Assembly: GCF_033153115.1 (NCBI RefSeq)
Contig: NW_026889803.1
Location: 62,992,001-63,056,000, forward strand
Origin: Saccostrea echinata
Lineage: Eukaryota
DNA length: 64,000 bases
Reading direction: 5' to 3'
Shown: positions 29,794-62,708 of the stretch, piece after piece
Layout: each line of letters opens with the position of its first letter
Position numbering within the stretch: the first letter of the stretch is position 1
Position numbers and translations under genes: made by a program
Notes under the pieces: model-generated
What the model was told of the DNA's origin: nothing
Database searches by the model: none
Seen by the model: the letters and a program-made list of their open reading frames with translations, nothing else

Positions 29794-30775
29794 AACAAGA
29801 TGTGTTTGTGAAACACTGATGCCCCTGTACGGCAACGTACTGTGAAGGTTAAACTTTCTCAAATGCAAATCAAATGTATGTTGGTACCCAAAGTAAGGTC
29901 TTATCTCGAGGAATATACCTATGAAATATGAAAGCCCTATCAGCAACCATTGAATAGATATGGAAATGGTTCAAGTTTTTTCAAAAGTAAGTCAAACATC
30001 AAGTAAAATGGTCAAAATTAATGGTGCCCAAGGAAAGGCCTTCTCATAAGAAATACACATGTGAAATATGAAAGCCCTAGAACCAACTGTTCAAAAGTTA
30101 TGGCCAAGGTAAAAAATTTTCAAAAGTAGGTCAAACTCCAAGGTCAAGAACAATGGATTACAATTGTTGATATCCAAAGGAAGGTCTTATCACAAGAATT
30201 ACATGCATGAAGTATGAAAGCCCTAGCACCAACTATTCAAAAGTTATGGCCAAGGTTAAAGTTTTCCAAAAGTAGGTCAAACTCCAGGGTCAAGGTGAAT
30301 GGGCTATTATTGTTGGTATCCAAAGGAAGGTCTTGTCACAAGAAATACACACGTGAAGTATGAAAGCCCTAGCACCAATTGTTAAACATTATGGGCAAGG
30401 TTAAAGTTTTTCAAAAGTAAGTAAATCTCCAAGGTCAAGGAAAAGGGCCAAAGTTGTTGATATCTAAAGGAAGGTCTTGTCACAGGGATTACACATGTAA
30501 TGTATGAAAGCCCTAGCTCCAATTGTTCAAAAGTTATGGCCAAGGTTAAAGGTGGTTTAAGTTTTGCAAAACTGAGTCAAATTCCAAGGTCAAGGTCAAA
30601 AGGCCAAATATGATGGTACCAAAAGAAAGGTCTTGTCACAAGGAATACGCAGGTGAAATATGAAAGTCATGGCTCCTACCAATCAAAAGTTATGGGCAAT
30701 GTTAAAGTTTTTGCGGACAAACAGATAGACAGACAAACGGACGGACAGGGCAAAAATTATATACCCCCGAATCTC
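29794..30775. mobile_element. HINE-type element, third family
   Basis: aacaagatgtgtttgtgaaacac start, about 150-bp tatgaaagccctagcacc...ggtcaaactccaaggtcaag units, and an acag/ggac tract. Confidence 0.8.
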
Positions 30776-31207
30776 CTTCCACATTTTCAAGTTGAGGTAT
30801 TCTGATCCTTTAAACTGCATCTTAGATGTATATTCCTCTGCGGGACCCTTGCTGACTGGTCAGTTTTTTAATTTCTTATATAAATAGGAATATATTTTTA
30901 ACTGATGCTATGTTTTACATGTATAATGTATATCATATATCCATACTAAAGATGAGTTATTAAATATATGCATTTGAATCATGTTAATCAAGTTTATATA
31001 CACATGTAGTACAACTTTGATATGGATTTTACTTATTGATGGAAATACATGTAATTTTAAAGTGCTGATGCTGAAGTCCGGGATGTAATAGGAACATGTC
31101 CACAACATCTGCTTGGTTGGCATGGTATATTACATGAAAGAAGTAAGATTGGTTTTGTTAATTTTGGATGAACAAGGTGTGTGAAATTCCTATTGTTTCG
31201 CTATATA

Positions 31208-32110
31208 AACAAGATGTGTTTGTGAAACACTGATGCCCCCGTATGGCAACTAATAGCAACGGTTAAACTTTCTCAAATGCAAATCAAATACGTTGGTACC
31301 AAAAGTAAGGTCTTGTCTTGAAGAATATACCTGTGAAATATGAAAGCCCTAGCAGCAACCGTTGAATAATTATAGAAAAGGTTAAAGTTTTTTTTTTCAA
31401 AAGTATGTCAAACATCAAGGTCAAATGGTCAAAATTAATGGTGCTTAAGGAAAGGCCTTCTCCCAAGAAATACACATGTGAAATATGACAAATGAAGCAC
31501 CAATCGTTCAATGACCAAGGTTAATGTTTTTCAAAAGTTGGTCAAACTCCAAAGTCAAGGTCAATGGATTACAATTGTTGGTATCCAAAGAAAGGTCTCG
31601 TCACAAGGAATAGACATTTTAAATATGAAAGCCCTAGCAACAACTGTTTAAAAGTTCTGTCCAAGGTGAAAGTTTTCAAAAAGTAGGTCAAGCTCTAAGG
31701 TCAAGATCAATGGATTATAACTGTTGGTATCCAAAGGAAGGTCTTGTCACATGGATTACATATGTGAAGTATGAAAGCCCTAGCACCAACCGTTTAAAAG
31801 TTAAGGCCAATGTTAAAGTTTTCCAAAAGTAGGTCAAACTCCAAAGTCAAGGTCAAAGAGTCAAAGGTGTTGGTATTCAAAGAAAGGTCTTGTCACAAGG
31901 ATTACATATGTGAAGTATGAAAGCCCTAACACCAACCGATCAAAAGTTATGACCAAGGTTCAAGTATTCCAAAAGTAGGTCAAACTCCAAGGTCTAGGTC
32001 AAAGGGTCAAATTTGTTGGTATTCAAAGGAAGGTCTTGTTACAGTGATTACACGTGTGAAGTATGAAAGCTCTATCACCAATTGTTCAAAAGTTATGATC
32101 AAGGTTAAAG
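31208..32110. mobile_element. Truncated HINE-type element, third family
   Basis: Same start and units as 29794-30775, with the end missing. Confidence 0.78.
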
Positions 32111-34304
32111 TTGGGTAAGACTCTGGTAAGTTATACGCTATCTATATGTGATCACTATAAATGTTTTCACATAGGTTGAAGTGATAAATTCTTATTTACT
32201 GATTAAACTGAGATTTCGACAAAGTGGAAGTCCGCGTCGAAGCACATTTTATGTTAAGACCGCGGAATATTAACTGGCAAGATTGGAAATATACAGTCAA
32301 AACATTTAATGATAGACAATGAAATGAGCGCGGGCGTCTGAGAAAACTTTGGATTGAATTTCTAGTTCGAAATTCATTTTCAATCCACCTCAGCTACTCT
32401 CATACACACAGTGTTACTGATTGATCCAGAAGACACATAATATCTATTTTGGAATAGTTTGAAATTATATGAATCAAAACTTTTATGACCAATGTTAATT
32501 TTTAAAGAAATGAATAGTTGACGACCTTTTGATTCGTGTGTGGGAGAGGGGACTGGCAGGTCTTGTAAATAAACAAGAAAGGTTAGGTTTTGAGTTTTGA
32601 CATCCTCGCTCCCCATCCTCTCAGCCCTGATGGTTTTGTTTGTTATACATTTTTGTCAGTGTAGATCAAAATAAATAATATCTCTTTATCCTAGAAATAA
32701 ATATACAATGTACTCTATTTTGTGAAGACGTGAACAGAAATAAATTTACCCCCCCCCCCCCTTTAGAACTCCTTGGCCGTGTCCTGAAACTTGTATATCT
32801 GTAACTTGCGTGTCTTTAAAAAATATTGGATAGAGATTCGGATCTAAATTAGTTTTAAAATAATTAGGAATTGAACTTTTTGTCTTTCGGATAAAAAAAA
32901 TTAACACAGCATATGAAAATAGCAAAGGTTGATTGAAAATCAACGTCTATAAACTAGAATTTCAATCCAGTGTTTTTTCTGACGTTCGTGACGAATTGTA
33001 TCCGTTCATTTCATTGTATATCATCAAATATTTTACTGCAACAAATGGAAATGACTAAGCTGCATATTACCCATCAAGCCATGCGCGGATCTGGGGATGT
33101 GTGTGTAAATCTACCTGTAACTAAAAAGGTTTCTCAGTATATAGAAAAAAGATCCAGATTGTCAACATGATAATAAGAATCGTCAGATAGAATAGACAAA
33201 CATGGTCCTAATCATATTTCATTATCCTTGTGCTGTTATAAAATTTTATCGTCAATGAAACAAAATTAATTACTCATTGAAATGAAGTTCATTATTATCA
33301 ACAGAACATCCTTCTCCGTCATGTCCAAATAAAAACCTCCGAGGATTTTTCTCGACTTGACGGAAAAGCTTTTGCATCTTTATACATTCAGTGCCTACGT
33401 CACAAACAATTATCATTACAATGACCTCTATGACGTCATATACAAAGATCTTAAACGTCACAATACGCCGTAGCAACTTTGTTTAGGAAAGTTTGTAAGA
33501 ACATTGGCAAAATGCTGGAAAGCATTAGAAAAGCGCTGGTAAGTTACACGCTTTCTTAATGCATGTATACTTTGTAGCTGTATGTAACCCTTCTGATCTC
33601 AATATTTTTCACAAAGTTCTTGTTAGATATTTATCGTTAATTAGACTGTTTTCAACATGAGCCTGCCTAAGCACATTTAGACATTAGATCGAACTTTTTT
33701 TTCTATTTCCTTAATTAATCTACTCTCCTACAGAGAGTCGAAAGTTTTCCCAACAATTTTCGGAAAAAAATTTAAAAAAAAAACATTGTGAAGGGAAATA
33801 TTTATCGGGGAATTTCTTTACCACACTTTGTAATCAAGATACACTAAGATGTAATTCATTAATGACGATAGTACCAGTAAATTCTTACTAGCTCTGTACG
33901 TATGTTACATAATCCATGCAGTTTATCTAAGTTTTAAAAAATATCGTATTTCTATCTTTTGAAGTTTACAAAGAAATATGATATTTCAAAAACTGCTGAT
34001 ATTAGCTGCATTATGTTTGAATTTCAAATCATATTAAGACTGGTTTAAAAAGAACACACAATACACCAAAGGCGTCATCTTGAAACTGTCTTTTGGTTTG
34101 ACAAAAACGCCCGCTTTAGCAGGGTTGGGGGGGGGGGGGCTTGAGTGATTCCTGGAAGTCTCTGATCTGGGTACCTGTAGTTTCGGCATTTTTGTTGGCA
34201 TTATTATAATCATCTAACAATTCACTAGCTGCACCATGTAAATCAAACCAGAAAACTATCAACAGTGTTCACATGTGAGACTCGGTTCATCTCTCCCCTC
34301 TCTT

Positions 34305-53965: not shown

Positions 53966-54839
53966 GGCGAAAGTTGTGTCATAAAAGTGTATTTCTAAAA
54001 AATGAAGCGAAGACCCACTCATATCGAAAAATTGTGTTATAGTATGAGAAAATTATCCATTTTGCCCTCTTTAGTGTGTGTATGCTATTTTATAGGCAAA
54101 AAATTTCAATCTTTGTGAGACCTTTGCATATTTTGAAGATTTTACATAGACTTTAATTTTAGATAAAATATCAAAGAAAATTTTGTTATAATTGAGATTC
54201 AATTTTTCATGTTTGTCGCACTATTTGCACTTCGATCGCCTTGTTCGTCCGTCTTCTTTTATGCCTCTCACTGTGGTGATTTTTTAAGAGTATTCATGCC
54301 TTTACGTGTCAACAACACTCCTAAAACAATTTTTAAAATGACTTCAAAGATACTTCAAATTTTAATTCAATTATATTATTTTTACCAATCTTGAATTAAA
54401 ATGAGCCCCTATGATCTAAAAGGTATACCATATATTGAGTTGCAGAAACATGCATGAACTTAAATACATGTACATAATGCAATGCAACTTTTACGTCTTA
54501 CAACTTTCAGGGTGTAATGTTTTCTTGTAAATATAATCTACCCAGCGCTTACAGAAGTTTATGATATTAGAGGCTTGTCTTCCGGATTGTTAAATGTAAT
54601 ATAAATTAAAAATATTGAATCTATACTTTAAATACACTTAAAAAGTTGTTACAATAAAGATTCTGGCACTTTCAGACAAGAAATACCATTTTCTTTTTTT
54701 TTAAAAAGTAGCACACCTATATATATAAACACTGTAAGGGACGTAAGGTTTCGTCTTGGAAAAAATAACACCCACCCACTTCAGCGCATATTTCTGGAAT
54801 CTTAAGTATTAATTTATTTCGTTGTTAATGTTCTTTCCG

Positions 54840-55188
54840 AGGCCGTAACGGGGCCACTCAAATCACAAGCGGATCCAGGGTAGATTCCTGATTAGGGTGC
54901 TCCGGGGGGGGGGGGGGGGTCCCGAAACCTAAGTTTTTAGCAATTAACTTAAAGACTTAATCTTTGAAAAATATTTTCATTTTTTGAATTTACATGTGTT
55001 CTTAATTATAATGAAGCACCTGGTGAGATGATGGATTTACAGAAAGTGAAACAAAAGTTGAAAGTATTAATTTAGTACAAAGACAAACGTAATTAATTAA
55101 AGTTTAAAGTAAAAAAAATCATTTTTCAGAAAACCCTAAAATTTTATTGAGGCATTTGCCTCACTTGCCTCAATGGTAGTTACGGCCT
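54840..55188. mobile_element. MITE related to 5957-6428
   Basis: aggccgtaac ... gttacggcct TIRs. The 3' end gaggcatttgcctcacttgcctcaatgg resembles 6388-6414. Confidence 0.65.
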
Positions 55189-56659
55189 TGCTTTCCCCTA
55201 CAGTGATTATTTTTCTAAATGTTGATGTGTCCGTCAGTCGTCACTTAGCACTAGTTCAATCAACAGAAAACTCTATAGGTGTGGTACTTTTTTTTAAAAA
55301 ATGGTATTTCTTGTCTGTAATCTTAAGCAAATCTTTAACATAAGCAGATTTTAAAATACCCATGGATATGAATAAATGAGCCCTAATTTTTTTTCCGCAT
55401 GTTTAACTCATGTAAAGTTAAACATATTAGATTGATGAAGTACATTTTCATAGTTGTAATTTCTTCTGAAATTGGTAAGAAAATGAACATTTGCGCTGTG
55501 TTTTTTTTTTATCTCCTTCCTTCATATTTTTAAAATACTTGGTACGTGAGAGGTTCAGTTTGCCTGGACATAACGATAGAAACATTCAACACAAGCCGTA
55601 ATACTTTCACCAAACTGAGTCCCGTATTTTCTTTTGTTAGTTTTTCTTTCTTTCTTTTTTCGCAATACTAGTAGATAGAGATGCATCGCCCTAGAGTAAG
55701 AACAATGAGACGAGGGAGTGTCCAAGCGAAATAAATCTTACTCTGGCTCTCTTGTAATTTATAGCTTTGCTCTCCTGCGCTCTTTAAACCTATAAAAGTA
55801 CTTCCATAAATCATCAAAACTTTGAGTCGGATATTGTACTTTATTCTTTATATGCTCACAGAAAAATTAATGAATTCTTCCAATCTCTTGCCAAGTTTCA
55901 TCTTGTTAACAGGGCAATTCATATTATGTTGATAGGCCAATACACGTGACATTCTGTACTTATGATAAAACTACTGTAAATTTTTTATCACAAAGACTTA
56001 GAGAGATGAAGAACTCTCTAAATTATTCTTCCTCAAATTTTCCAAAGACAAACATTTATCTCCAACTAGAGGAATCAATGCAACGAATGTACAAGGTATA
56101 GGAGAAAATTTTATTGAGGTACATCATGAATATACATCTGTATATAAATCAAATGACAATCAGTCGACAGGAAATTCAATTCAACATATAAGATTACTGG
56201 AAAAAAATCAAACAAATATGAATTTAATGACTGTTCTCTTTTTACATTATACATGTATAAATTATCTATGAATATGAACAAAATATTGAAATAAAGATAA
56301 TAAATCATGCAAAATAAAAGCAAGCCTTCACAATCCAGATATTTAATATATCCATGCAATACATGTACAAATGATCTGTTCCTACTGAGAGATACAGGTT
56401 TCCACGACAATAAAAATCATTGTTTACAAATGGGATGATATTTGAAAAACAACATAAAAAACAATGAACTTTAAATTAAATTCCAAGAGAAATGGATACA
56501 TAAACATCACGTAAAAATATTGAAATCTTGCCTTGATCACGACAAAAAGTTTGAAATTTGTTATGAAAATTACGGAAGGCAGTCTAGAGTCAAGAATCAA
56601 GAATCAAACTAAAAGAAATTTCAATTCCGTTTTTCATGGTTATTTTTTCCGGTGGTGGT

Positions 56660-59230
56660 CTACCATGGACAATCACGGAGACGTTTTCCTCTGAGAACAG
56701 GTCTGAAGGCAGCAAAATCCTTCCCCAATTTGCGTGGAAACTCTGGCGAAAGAAAATGCGCTCTTTCATGACGATATCCTTGGCGACGCAGCATTCTTCG
56801 ATAATGAGGCTCAAAATCACGGCCACGGGGTCTTCCCCGGAAGACATCTCGACCACATCTTCTTCCCTGGAGTGCATTTTCTTGGTTGTGAGTACTGCAC
56901 TGCTTGAAAATTCTGCAAATTTTCCGTGCTAGCTTTCTAGGCCTAATTTTCATGTCGTCATTCATTTTAACTTTTAAAGTGAGAACTCCGAAGTCGTGTT
57001 CTATAACTCTGCTTTTTTTGCCATGGCAGGTACCATCTTTGTGCGTAGCACGGTTGCATTTTCTTTGACCTTTCTCTTCTATGGGAGTTTCATCTTCTTC
57101 CATATTTTCCTGGTTTTTATTTTTATTTTCTTGTGACTCATTGAGAATCCCCTTATCTCCACATCCGTGCTTGCAGTGATATTTTCTTGCTTCTTCAGAT
57201 TGATTATTTTCATCTGACCCATCATCTTTATAATGATGTCGACGATTTCTGCATTTTCTCCTTTCTTCCCCTTCCTTACCATCCTTGATAGTCATGGTTT
57301 CAACAAGTTCAGAAATCCCAGGCTCCGTATCGTATTCATTCCGGGATGTCAAAACATCAGATTTCTTCTACTCTTCATTTGCAAGCATTGTGGCTCTTCT
57401 TCGATAGCTTTTACAGCGCCGGCCAAGACATTTTTTCTCTTTTCCACCGGCAGAATCTGTAGAAGATTCACAGACATGTATAGGCAAACCATTCACCTTA
57501 AACCTCAGGAAAGACTTTCTATTTCGGTTTCTACCTGGTCTGCATCTCTTACTAGCTAGCATCTCGTCGTCCTTTTCTCGTCTGCACACAGCAACAGATG
57601 CTGAGCGCCTGCATCTTTTTCCTTTTCCATGCATCATCAAACTGAATTCCCTAAGGTTTTTTCCATACAGACGAGTAGGTGGAGCTGACCTTGCTCGTCT
57701 GCAGGACTTCTTCTCTCGGCAATATCCTCTAACATTTTCCCGATCTCTCCTTGAGTGGCAATTCTCATTGACCACCGATGCACCGAAATGTCGGACAGGG
57801 CGCTGATCGTGTCTCAGACTCCAGCGATCCCTGTTCCAGCGGTACCAGCCACCAGTCATTTTTGGACAAGTTCTACTGGACACTGGAATCTGGTCCCCAT
57901 CTTGACATGTTAACGACCATTGTTGTCGTCTGCCACACCGGTATCCATGATTGTTATCCCCAGGGTGATCGAATTTTTCGCGATTTTCTACTTTGCGACG
58001 TAAGTACCTCCGCGTTCTTTTTTCGGAGGGAGGGTGGTCATTCATCAGTTGTTTTCTTAACCTTGGAAATGACACAGGACTTTGGCCATTGTCGAAACTT
58101 TTCCAATGACGTCGACGACGCTGCCATCTCAGGGGACAGAACTCGTCCGAAGTCAGATTATCCTTCAATAAAAATGAAACTTAAGATTACGATTTAGATC
58201 TTTGAATATGTACCTTGTTACAGTATGAGATTGTACATCAAAATTAAAGATTAAACAGTGAAACACTGTTTGATTTTCAAGATTCACAACCGATAATACG
58301 ACATTCATATAACATGATGAATCCTGAAGAAAGAGCTGATTGTAGACAGTCCGCCTTACTATTCGACATGTGAGCACATTTTCAAAATTGGATCTTTTTA
58401 TGCATTAAAAGCTTTTTATACTCGGAAAAAAATTCAGTTTATAACTACATGTATTTCTGACCAAGGAACAAAAACCAAAATGAATAAGAAATAAAATGGA
58501 AAAAAAAAAAAAATCATATTTTACCATTTCATTATCACCTCTGTGGTCCGTTCCCTCCTTTCTCGAGTGATCTGTAAAACACATCATTGCAATAGTCAGA
58601 TGATAACATGTAACAGTTTTTAATTTCTCAAAAATATGATAGTTAATTAAGAACAGCTATAATCAATATTTTACATTTGTATTTACCTTCAATTCTTTGA
58701 AGAAAAATTCTCAGGGTCTCCTCGTTTGCGCTCTTCGTCGCCTCTCGGAACTCCTCATCACTCGACATTGTGATTAGGTCACTCTCGTCATCTGCAATAT
58801 TGTTATATAAATATTTAAAATATTTTTATAAGGATTATTTCAGCTATAGGTTAAACACCACTTCAAGGAAAATGTTCTGGGGGAAATTACAAAAGCTGTA
58901 ATTAATATGAACTTCTGTTTACTCATTCCGTGCACGGATTTGCATTTAAGTTCATCTGCATTCATTAAACTTTCCATAACTTGACAATGAGTACTAAAAT
59001 ACCCAATGTTGTAAAAAAAAAAAAAAAACAAACAAACTTTCGGGAACCAAATGGTTGATAAAAAAGACAAATATCTTACCTTTCCAATAGAGCGTATAAG
59101 TTCCAGTGGTCTTTCCAAACAATTCTGACACCTTTCTCTCAAATTCAGCAAAATCTGGTTGATTTTCCAGCGTCATCCGTCTTATTTCTGGCTCTTCGGC
59201 AGACATCAGGGTTACTTTCACTTTTATCAT
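56660..59230 (-). pseudogene. PB1-basic-tail protein, copy B, with an in-frame TAG at 57370-57368 (truncated gene, pseudogene or null allele)
   Basis: Exons 59230-59080, 58791-58687, 58571-58525, 58162-56660 are colinear with copy A. The frame continues after the TAG to the same DCPW* end. Confidence 0.75.
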
Positions 59231-59389
59231 GATTTGTTGATACACGTGGTTTTGTTTACAAACAAATAGCTCCTTGAATTAATTTACTTTTAACAAGAAA
59301 ATTTTAACGGTACCTTTTTGGAGTTTGATAGTCTTATACGTTCAGCTGCTATCAAATATTCACCTCGGCGCTTCTACGCTCAATGGCGC

Positions 59390-59790
59390 TCTGGGCGCCT
59401 TTATATAGGCGCCGTGTTGAGTCATGTGACTGGTATTTCGTAATTGAGTCACGTGAGGGGTCATGGTAAGTTCATATCTCATTAATATTCATTATTGACA
59501 ACATTTAAAAAACACTATTTTTCAATAATTTCAATACTTTTCTGCAAGGTAAAGTTGCAGAAAAATCGTCTAAATAAATCTTTGTATAATACATTTCAAT
59601 TAATGCCTGAAAGATGAGATATAATGACTTATTAGACCTGCTAATTTAAATATTCATTATGTGTGGGTTGGCGGAAATATAAGATTTAGAACATTCTCGA
59701 TAACGGAAAAACATTTTTAGAATTAATCACATGACTATTATTAGCGCCCTATAAAAGCGCCATATGGCGCAAAGGCGCACTACCTGACGC
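59390..59790. promoter_or_regulatory. Bidirectional promoter between PB1 genes B and C
   Basis: Minus-strand TATA at about 59400-59407, TGAGTCA 59418 and 59445, GTCATGTGAC 59421, TCACGTGA 59449, aGAAcaTTCtcGA 59688, TCACATGAC 59727, TATAAAA 59750. Confidence 0.72.
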
Positions 59791-59917
59791 CGATACTTTT
59801 CAAGGACAAGTTGTTGAAATATATACTTGCTATACTTTAATTTTTTTACTGTATTAATCACGTTTGATATTTAAAGTTACTAAACGAACTGAATAATTTT
59901 AAAAGTACACGTGAAAA

Positions 59918-61024
59918 ATGAAAGTAAATATTATATCCGAAATGGGTGTAATTCGTGATTTTGATTTTGTTGATGGAAGTTTTGACTATACATCGTTGTT
60001 GACAGTAACAAAAGAAAATTTTCCCCATATAAAGAGGTATGCCCTTCTGTGGAAAGGTATGTAAAAAGAACTTATATATATATAAAAGAGTACGATCTAT
60101 AAATAAGAATTAACGGGATATGTTTCATTGATTATAAATTTCTTATTCATTCCATTCATATTTTTATGGAAAATGTGATATTCTTTTATACTGCAGGGTT
60201 AGTTTTAAAATGATTTTTAAGTTTAGTAGAGGTTGGGTAAATAAATAAAGTATCTTTTAAGAGAATATTATTTTAAATCAATTACAGACAGTGATGGAGA
60301 TAAGATTACGCTTTCGTCCCAAGAAGAGCTGAATGAAGCGGTAACCTACAGAACAGAGGAGGAACTTGATATCTATATAACAGGTATATACATTGGAATC
60401 TAATTAATATCAAACATTAGTATCTCTTTTTGTAGATAAATGCCATGTATTGAAATATTATGTGTTCACAAAGGTCTACTACTATTCTTTATTTTCCATA
60501 TAAATCTATATAGCATTGTTAACTTTGGGATCGGGGAATTTAAATTTTATCGGTCCATTTTGTCATTTTTCAATGGTTTTTCTTTTTGACTGTACATCAA
60601 TCCTCCTTACCCTGACGGAAAAAATCTGGATCTTTTTTTACTTCTTAATTTAAATGATTTTTTTTTTCTTTCAGAAATCTCTGATGAAATTTCGAGTAGG
60701 TTGTACCGTACAGATGAGGAAATTGGTTTGGACATTGATGACAGTATCACACATCACAATGCACATCAAACAAACCCTCGATGGGACAGAAGAAAATGTT
60801 ATAAAAGAATTAAAGCGGTAACGGAGAAGACTCCAGACAATCTGCCGGATTTCTTTTCAATTTCTAAAGTTCCGTGTAGAATCAAGCGACGTCTGAAGAG
60901 AAGCGACAGGAAGTGTCTACGTCATCGGATTAGAGCAAGCAGCTGCTACCCACGTCAAAAACATGGCGGTAGAAAACGTCTGCGTGATGTAAATAAATCG
61001 CTAGAAAACATGTCCATTTCATGA
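59918..61024 (+). CDS. Short divergent PB1-basic-tail protein, copy C (about 194 aa)
   Basis: Exons 59918-60056, 60288-60383, 60675-61024. Translation MKVNIISEMGVIRDF...LLWKDSDGDKITLSSQEELNEAV. It has the same phase-1 intron at WK|D as A and B, and an Arg/Cys-rich tail. Confidence 0.85.
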
Positions 61025-61559: not shown

Positions 61560-62708
61560 TTTTTTTATGCCCCCGGATCGAAAGATCCCGAGGGTATATT
61601 GTTTTTGTCCTGTCTGTCTGTTTGTTTGTCTGTCTGTTGTCAACTTTAACCTTGCCCATAACTTTTGATTGGTTGGAGCTATGACTTTCATATTTCACAT
61701 GTGTATTCCTTGTGACAAGACCTTTCTTTGGGTACCATCATATTTGACCTTGACCTTGGAGTTTGACCCACTTTTGCAAAATTTTATGAGACTTTAACCT
61801 TGGCCATAACTTCTGAACAGTTGGAGCTTGGGGTTTCAAACTTCACATGTGTATTCTTTGTGACAAGGCCTTCTTTTGGATACCAACCACTTTGACCTTT
61901 TGACCTTGGACTTTGACCTACTTTTGAAAAACTTTAACCTTGGCCATAACTTTTGAACAGTTGGTGCTTAGGGTTTCAAACTTCACATGTGTATTCCTTG
62001 TGACAAGACCTTCCTCTGGATATCAACCACTTTGAACCTTTTGACCTTGACCTAGGAGTTTGACCTACTTTTGAAAAACTTCAACCTTGGCCATAACTTT
62101 TGAATGGTTGGAGCTAGGGCTTTCATACTTCACATATGTAATCCTTGTGACAAGACCTTCCTTTGAATACCAACGACTTTGACCTTTTGACCTTGACCTA
62201 GGAGTTTGACCTACTTTTGAAAAACTTTAACCTTAGCCATAACTCTTGAAAGGTTGATGCTAGGGCTTTCATACTTCACATATGTAATCCTTGTGACAAG
62301 ACCTTCCTTTGGATACCAACCACTTTGACCCTTTGACCTTGACCTAGGAGTTTGACCTACTTTTGAAAAACTTTAACCTTGGCCATAACTTTTGAATGGT
62401 TGGTGCTAGGGCTTTCATACTTCACATATGTAATCCTTGTGACGAGATCTTCCTTTGGATACCAACCACTTTGACCTTGACCTTGACGTTTGACTTTTAT
62501 TTAAAAAACTTTAACCTTCACCATAACTTTTGAACAGTTGTATCTAGGTCTTTCAAATTTCACAGGTGTTTTCCTCGAGTCAAGATCTTTCTTTGGGTAT
62601 CAACATTTTTTATCTTTTGGCCTGGATTTTGACTTGCATTTGAGAAACTTTAACCTTCGACATAAGCTACTATACGGGGGCATAGTGTTTCACAAACACA
62701 TCTTGTTT
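61560..62708. mobile_element. Full-length HINE-type element, third family, reverse orientation
   Basis: ttttatgcccccggatcgaaagatccc hairpin end, a tgtc tract, about 150-bp units, and a gtgtttcacaaacacatcttgtt end. Confidence 0.85.

Follow-up and report, generated by a model that had tools for sequence, protein, structure and literature searches.

Vertebrate SQSTM1 (p62) is a target of MiT/TFE factors, and the CLEAR/M-box E-box of such targets is TCAYGTGA, a sequence likewise recognized by USF, BHLHE40/41, and further factors of the bHLH-zip class. According to the accessible portions of the studies concerned, p62 polymerization is driven by a double arginine (PMC6978347), and NBR1, which has the acidic PB1 face only, terminates p62 chains (PMC9582228). 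Selective autophagy in oysters has already been tied to OsHV-1 infection in the available text of one report (PMC9014014), and in that of a survey of autophagy in oysters, one SQSTM1 is listed and PB1 appears a single time (PMC7595595). As for promoters that serve two genes, the available text of one study calls a promoter bidirectional when divergent starts lie <1 kb apart (PMC4089025); the typical vertebrate example is described as a TATA-poor CpG island, and the accessible part of the human survey gives only one region with a TATA box at both positions (PMC2559893).

Here we describe a promoter region between two oyster PB1 genes, B and C, which resembles metazoan bidirectional promoters in that it is divergent, has expected starts ~400 bp apart, and is CpG enriched relative to its background (observed/expected ratio of 1.34, versus 0.50 for the window, i.e., the whole 64,000-nucleotide stretch that was analyzed). 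It differs from the typical vertebrate form in having a G+C content of 35.8%, no CpG island, and two TATA boxes. The analysis suggests a likely origin and a testable role for a small oyster family that databases call uncharacterized.

The B/C gene pair and its relatives

The window covers positions 62992001-63056000 of contig C54 in the 923-Mb genome of Saccostrea echinata (G000). Gene models were built from splice signals, with four coding exons each for A and B and three for C:

56660..59230, minus strand: gene B, long PB1 gene; coding exons 59230-59080, 58791-58687, 58571-58525, and 58162-56660; splice-signal model
59918..61024, plus strand: gene C, short PB1 gene, 194 aa; exons 59918-60056, 60288-60383, and 60675-61024; splice-signal model
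48852..51502, minus strand: gene A, paralog of B, 624 aa; exons 51502-51355, 50958-50854, 50717-50662, and 50417-48852; splice-signal model
51660..52073, no strand assigned: duplicate promoter, with both TATA boxes and without a C gene to its right

Each of the three genes encodes an N-terminal PB1 domain. B (LOC133171651) and C (LOC133171543) lie head to head on opposite strands, with 688 bp from ATG to ATG, and exon 4 of A is 100% identical to the S. echinata protein LOC133171658. The B model is 601 codons long, codon 366 being an in-frame TAG in the assembly, and the database entry for B has 365 aa. Since this TAG (window 57368-57370) reads TCG in 3/3 covering runs, from both studies that provided transcripts, the expressed B is the long form of ~601 aa, matching the long/short description of the original prediction, and the 365-aa entry probably reflects either an error in the assembly or a rare allele.

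The transcript evidence consisted of assembled contigs from six runs, whose RNA nature is our guess. Five runs from two studies carry the B/C stretch; the sixth (X6) comes from another organism and matches in pieces only. Contigs join across the modeled GT-AG introns of A, B, and C: all three splice joints of A occur in 3/4 runs, two joints of B are listed in 3/4 runs and its third follows from the record coordinates, and the first joint of C is spanned by contigs in X1 and X3 of one run set and in X3, X4, and X5 of a second. The long and the short PB1 gene predicted to lie head to head are thus both spliced in transcript contigs. Contigs end at 59369, 59367, 59356, 59281, and 59259 on the B side and at 59825, 59864, and 59902 on the C side; the furthest of them stop 31 nt (B, 59369) and 68 nt (C, 59825) short of the TATA boxes described below, so that spliced contigs of B and C approach to within 456 bp of each other. 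Because contigs cannot show a start, these ends only bracket the promoter, and the stretches that they leave uncovered (59370-59824 and, beside A, 51728-52168) are uninformative either way.

Long and short types also occur in S. cucullata (three each, on one 280-kb contig), O. edulis, and C. gigas, in all of which they carry consecutive protein accession numbers; judging from these numbers, adjacency of the pair appears to have been kept in three genera. A profile search of 1.84 billion proteins returned 286 hits at an E value of 0.001, only the top seven of which match strongly beyond PB1. Among 20 further hits scanned with Pfam, 19 have ZZ, UBA, or both, as in p62 and NBR1. Literature searches for A/B/C-type genes, and for six oyster LOC identifiers of which five are family members, found no paper, and the main text of a heatwave preprint does not mention them.

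Elsewhere in the window, a long IQ-repeat exon at 43122-44195 (Pfam IQ, 3.7e-42) belongs to a plus-strand gene that ends near 47800 and that we take to be ASPM-like in appearance. Satellite-like arrays of ~146-bp and ~166-bp repeats occupy 61601-62665, 29877-32151, and 8819-10957; the 146-bp family contains many direct repeats of AGGTCA and inflates the counts of nuclear-receptor motifs.

Motifs between B and C

Consensus strings for M-box, CLEAR, ARE, HSE, BRE, and xLIR were taken as commonly given. The region at 59390-59790 contains the following features:

59407-59400, minus strand: TATA box of B, TATATAAA, within feature 59400..59414, with the heptamer CGGCGCC, which we take to be a BREu-type consensus heptamer, directly upstream
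59418..59430, plus strand: AP-1 heptamer TGAGTCA (59418-59424) overlapping M-box GTCATGTGAC (59421-59430)
59445..59456, plus strand: TGAGTCA (59445-59451) overlapping the palindromic E-box TCACGTGA (59449-59456)
59458..59474, plus strand: perfect nuclear-receptor DR5, GGGTCA-5 nt-AGTTCA, missed by the original prediction
59484..59492, plus strand: 9-mer AATATTCAT, copy 1, presumably POU/homeodomain-like, identical in the duplicate
59501..59640, no strand: AT-rich spacer between motif blocks, about as diverged as introns
59649..59677, plus strand: AATATTCAT, copy 2 (59649-59657), and the presumably ETS/E2F-like TTGGCGGAA (59668-59676), 9/9 and 9/10 identical in the duplicate
59688..59700, plus strand: partial heat shock element (HSE) AGAACATTCTCGA, two consensus units and a degenerate third (GAT)
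59727..59735, plus strand: M-box TCACATGAC, 15 nt upstream of the TATA box of C, counted from TCACATGA
59750-59757, plus strand: TATA box of C, TATAAAAG, within feature 59744..59781, which also holds the GCGCC flanks and, downstream, a conserved 17-mer

All of the motifs named in the original prediction lie where it had placed them: the two outward-facing TATA boxes, claimed to be about 350 bp apart, are separated by 343 bp, and both TGAGTCA sites overlap E-boxes, forming the composites at 59418..59430 and 59445..59456. The BREu-type heptamer, both copies of AATATTCAT, and TTGGCGGAA, like the DR5, are additions to that set. The left M-box reads TCACATGA and is located 14 nt upstream of B's TATA box.

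The null model consisted of 5,000 dinucleotide shuffles of the 401 bp. Three TCAYGTGA E-boxes were observed, a number that no shuffle reached (0/5000; shuffle mean, 0.017), and two TGASTCA sites were observed, a number reached once (1/5000; mean, 0.027). By count alone, neither the two strict TATA boxes (393/5000 shuffles) nor the two-unit HSE GAANNTTC (606/5000) is unusual. All three E-boxes have the extended form GTCAYGTGA; 154 kb of this genome contain 7 such sites, 3 of them here. The motif set is therefore real and beyond chance. With three TCAYGTGA sites near the expected starts, the region has the sites of an MiT/TFE target; the predicted CLEAR/M-box match holds for these three E-boxes but not for the exact CLEAR palindrome GTCACGTGAC, which does not occur in the promoter.

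The duplicate promoter beside gene A

The segment 59074-59791 matches 51349-52073 with 79.7% identity, and a DNA search of the genome found no further promoter copies (2/2 matches within the window). No remnant of gene C was detected to the right of the duplicate by blastn or tblastx (52000-56700). At the position expected for C, to the right of A's second TATA box, the window contains a 103-bp near-palindrome (52241-52343; 83% self-match), one arm of which is matched by contigs from elsewhere with loose ends, as in a dispersed element.

Identity is uneven, at 84/92 in the left block, 70/140 in the middle, and 114/151 in the right block, and the claim that most motifs are retained while the spacers diverge stands only in part. 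Both TATA boxes, TCACGTGA, and the HSE-like 13-mer (13/13) are identical in the duplicate, the first M-box keeps its core TCATGTGA with its AP-1 part changed, and both DR5 half-sites are kept (51741-51757). In contrast, the two TGAGTCA sites have become TTAGTCA and TGAATCA, leaving no exact TGASTCA, and the right M-box is broken (TTACATGGC). The spacers have diverged in the middle 140 bp, where the alignment z score of 2.7 compares with 2.7 to 5.4 for three introns, and in the right block, where 28/30 motif positions but 85/120 nonmotif positions are identical (P = 0.006). They have not done so in the left block, where the corresponding values are 30/33 and 73/78 (P = 0.82). The right block as a whole is also more similar (114/151) than the ~61% at fourfold sites (P = 0.0001), and it contains identical runs of 16 bases around the HSE-like site and 17 bases downstream of the TATA box. 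A 12-mer at window 51952-51963, GGAAGTGAAAGT, which we take to be an ETS/IRF composite-like site, occurs only in A's promoter; B/C retains just its GGAA part.

Given that A and B differ at 0/19 fourfold sites in exon 1 but at 42/107 in exon 4 (P = 0.0003), gene conversion has probably homogenized the left block. The 5′ untranslated regions (UTRs) of A and B are 96% identical, and conversion across exon 1, the UTR, and the left block is probably the simplest reading. Motif retention in the left block, the DR5 included, consequently says little about selection, and the use of the duplicate as conservation evidence for the left-hand motifs is undercut; more generally, a duplicate is weak evidence for motifs wherever gene conversion has acted. 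Only the right block, with its partial HSE and TATA box, appears to have been retained in a selection-like manner, either on A's behalf or as a state dating from before a recent loss of C.

These patterns bear on whether anything is shared between the two directions. If the left block drove B and the right block drove C as two independent one-way promoters set back to back, one could readily account for a TATA box and M-box on each side, for a middle 140 bp that evolves like an intron, and for the loss of C beside A with no effect on A's splicing. We nevertheless regard this arrangement as doubtful, since the right block has been kept beside A in the absence of a C gene, as fits its use by the left gene (although a recent loss of C would fit as well), and since the B/C-type pair is apparently adjacent in three genera.

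Relationship to SQSTM1

The true SQSTM1 of this genome, located through its UBA domain on contig C25 near 20.70 Mb, carries PB1, ZZ, and UBA. Its intron 1 lies at WK|D in phase 1 with the junction TGGAAAG|GT, the position found in A, B, and C, and its intron 2 follows PB1 in phase 1, also as in A, B, and C; exon 2 measures 99 nt in SQSTM1, compared to 105 nt in A/B and 96 nt in C. The likeness extends to the promoter, which in SQSTM1 reads CGGCTCC-TATATAAAG and is preceded by TCACATGA, oriented as in B/C. Shared by SQSTM1 and B are TATATAAA with a CGGC(G/T)CC flank and the upstream TCACATGA; their TATA regions agree at 16/17 bases, which alone is not significant (E = 0.35). On their transcribed sides, the promoters of B and C each have, in 5′-to-3′ order, TCACATGACT, then 12 to 13 nt, then a GCGCC-flanked TATA box, and their cores align with a z score of 3.8 over shuffles.

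A tight core pattern, built after all four promoters had been seen, occurs at four places in 923 Mb, namely, SQSTM1, A, B, and C, versus one place for a reversed control; because the pattern was built afterwards, the informative part is that nothing else in the genome matches. A looser M-box-TATA pattern, with a spacer range chosen afterwards, has 2,836 matches, or ~3 in 10,000 per 200 bp and strand. The B/C promoter also differs from that of SQSTM1 in having an extra E-box, the DR5, and the HSE-like site. SQSTM1 itself stands head to head with a p62-like gene, with ATGs 2.1 kb apart, and this neighbor has no M-box near its start. In the interval 20698441-20710400 of contig C25, one or more p62-like genes are encoded on the plus strand; they show PB1 exons, a stretch resembling ZZ, and two UBA-like exons. 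Upstream of SQSTM1 (L032:1448-1456) we observed GGGAATTCC, presumably an NF-kB-like palindrome, which is absent from the B/C promoter.

In PB1 trees, the A/B group has support of 97/99 and the C group 100/99, while the attachment of each to the rest is without support; when NBR1-like rows are included, the A group leans weakly toward them (73/36). A single clade of A, B, and C types is not rejected (p-AU = 0.43; 24 rows minus 5, of which four are NBR1-like and one is a long-branch p62). The PB1 tree fits both an in-place inverted duplication and the copying of the pair formed by SQSTM1 and its SQSTM1-like neighbor.

Taken together, these data suggest that A, B, and C are likely offshoots of SQSTM1/p62, a link that comes out stronger than originally claimed by virtue of the common intron positions and TATA-plus-M-box core. 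Common descent of the B, C, and SQSTM1 core promoters is likely the best reading, with convergence on a TATA-plus-M-box design as the alternative. The 5′ end of SQSTM1 (promoter plus two PB1 exons) would have been duplicated and brought into a head-to-head arrangement prior to the divergence of the oyster genera, and likely descent of both halves from one TATA-containing promoter would explain the double TATA of B/C, which is rare in the human survey.

A broken copy of an A/B last exon, with stops, lies on contig C10 (7520201-7522094), where it has been duplicated into a back-to-back pair of opposite orientation; neither a promoter match nor PB1 exons were found within 40 kb of it. Four other PB1 loci, two of which we take to be Par6-like and TFG-like, were inspected and set aside.

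Regulation of the pair

The region between B and C is a genuine pair of divergent TATA promoters, serving two expressed genes that occur across oysters and are likely p62 offshoots. Our main reading, to which we assign a probability of roughly 55%, is that these 400 bp form a divergent TATA pair, each member with TCACATGA ~15 bases upstream, that makes the spliced, p62-derived PB1 genes jointly MiT/TFE responsive. Each TATA box would fix a start ~30 nt downstream, near 59377 for B and near 59780 for C, and transcription both ways would be activated by MiT/TFE bound to the three E-boxes, which lie within 310 bp; HSF (at the partial site) and a nuclear receptor (at the DR5) are possible modifiers. 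Since each TATA box is preceded by the same E-box as that before oyster p62, lysosomal stress likely induces B and C jointly.

The E-boxes are most likely read by MiT/TFE, in view of the form of the sites, the presence of an MiT/TFE gene in the genome, an M-box 40 nt before the first matched codon of V-ATPase G, and the increase in C. gigas SQSTM1 mRNA under NH4Cl and OsHV-1 given in the available text of PMC9014014. MiT/TFE responsiveness of the promoter pair is likely. Counting against the joint model are the control loci, of which V-ATPase G was the only one in four with an M-box within 1.5 kb upstream (two of the four were probably searched over an interval that excluded the promoter); the other bHLH-zip factors that read TCAYGTGA; the broken right M-box of the duplicate, where the HSE-like site and TATA box were kept; the neutral-like 140-bp spacer, which is compatible with two separate promoters; and the PB1 tree, in which the attachment of A/B and C is without support.

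The E-boxes could instead be read by USF-type or clock bHLH factors and the DR5 by RAR/RXR or another nuclear receptor, placing the pair under tissue, developmental, or xenobiotic control rather than autophagic control. The DR5 at 59458-59474 is perfect, both of its half-sites are kept in the duplicate, and DR5-type sites number 4,765 in 923 Mb, or ~1 per 194 kb. It fits the consensus of a DR5 retinoic acid response element, two copies of (A/G)G(G/T)TCA separated by 5 nt, and C. gigas RAR and RXR bind DR0 to DR5 in yeast one-hybrid assays, according to the accessible text of PMC9656583. However, the site was found after scanning 29 repeat geometries, it sits in the probably converted block, and the upstream region of SQSTM1 has no DR5. 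Moreover, the C-type ortholog LOC105318145 and SQSTM1 are both absent from the list of 586 C. gigas ATRA genes (PMC9656583, table S1), a comparison that covers these two genes, the identifier of the long ortholog coming from a later annotation. We therefore think such control improbable, although well short of negligible.

That the pair is a multi-stress module, with NRF2/AP-1 and HSF1 inputs as important as MiT/TFE, is quite unlikely. In keeping with it, the two exact TGAGTCA sites are matched in only 1/5000 shuffles, and the HSE-like 13-mer is identical in the duplicate, where it adjoins TTCTAGAA. The AP-1 heptamers, however, share four or three bases with the E-boxes and so are not independent of them. 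The predicted AP-1/ARE-core match survives as two exact TGAGTCA sites, both mutated in the duplicate; no match to the NRF2 ARE (TGACNNNGC or RTGAYNNNGC) occurs in the promoter or its duplicate, and NRF2/ARE input finds no support. The HSE consensus consists of three alternating nGAAn units, and no three-unit HSE (GAANNTTCNNGAA) is present in the promoter. The predicted partial HSF site has two units, inside the 16 identical bases, and a degenerate third; given this conservation, a weak HSE stays possible despite the missing unit, and HSF input is possible but weak. Chance motifs, with the similarity due to recent duplication or conversion alone, as the probable homogenization of the left block (0/19 versus 42/107) might suggest, are largely refuted and very improbable in view of the shuffle tests, the selective retention in the right block, the position directly upstream of two spliced genes, and the recurrence at SQSTM1.

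PB1 types and comparison with p62 and NBR1

Pfam detects PB1 in A and C with E values of 6.6e-13 and 2e-7, respectively, and the nearest solved structures are all SQSTM1 PB1 domains (best 9 of 11). A, B, and C thus share with SQSTM1/p62 a PB1 domain of the p62 type but are without its ZZ, UBA, LIR, and KIR: Pfam found no ZZ or UBA in A, C, the C. gigas-type long protein, or the exon 4 frames of B, and the xLIR pattern matched 0/13 oyster proteins, versus 2/2 p62 controls. Their tails are long, strongly basic, and rich in Arg and Cys, with a net charge of +62 in A, compared to −13 and −14 in two p62 proteins. Lacking ZZ, LIR, and UBA, A, B, and C would be offshoots of p62, not p62; functionally, they fall outside the SQSTM1 family but may act on it. 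In the tail of C (residues 137 to 141; window 60849-60863), FFS is invariant in 7/7 C-type sequences, with D, E, or N before it and I, V, or T after it; despite its likeness to a LIR core, it fails the xLIR pattern.

The A/B type has K7, R21-R22, and the acidic (OPCA) motif in 6/6 sequences. The C type has N at the K7 position and no double arginine in 6/6 sequences but keeps the OPCA acidic motif, in which DGD and EE are invariant in 7/7. By these residues, A/B fit PB1 type AB, the polymer-forming class, and C fits type A, which is acidic only and NBR1-like. Given the roles of the double arginine in p62 and of NBR1 as a terminator, B is predicted to polymerize or copolymerize and C to cap. 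The two products would then tune p62-type polymers, B extending the chain through both PB1 faces and C capping it through its acidic face, and, if so, the pair would be a lineage-specific oyster tuner of selective autophagy. In its fullest form, which is speculative and which we judge unlikely as a whole, this idea describes an oyster two-gene switch made from the p62 promoter and PB1 exons and kept in Saccostrea, Ostrea, and Magallana, in which a polymer-former and its dedicated terminator, under one shared lysosomal-stress promoter, set the size of p62 bodies or form a separate basic, cargo-free condensate.

The predicted partnership parallels that of p62 and NBR1, in which one partner has both PB1 faces, like A/B, and the other has the acidic face only, like C. 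C is nonetheless a 194-aa oyster protein and not NBR1, and its partnership with B is predicted from residues. Unlike p62 and NBR1, B and C are without cargo- or LC3-binding domains, and they are encoded head to head.
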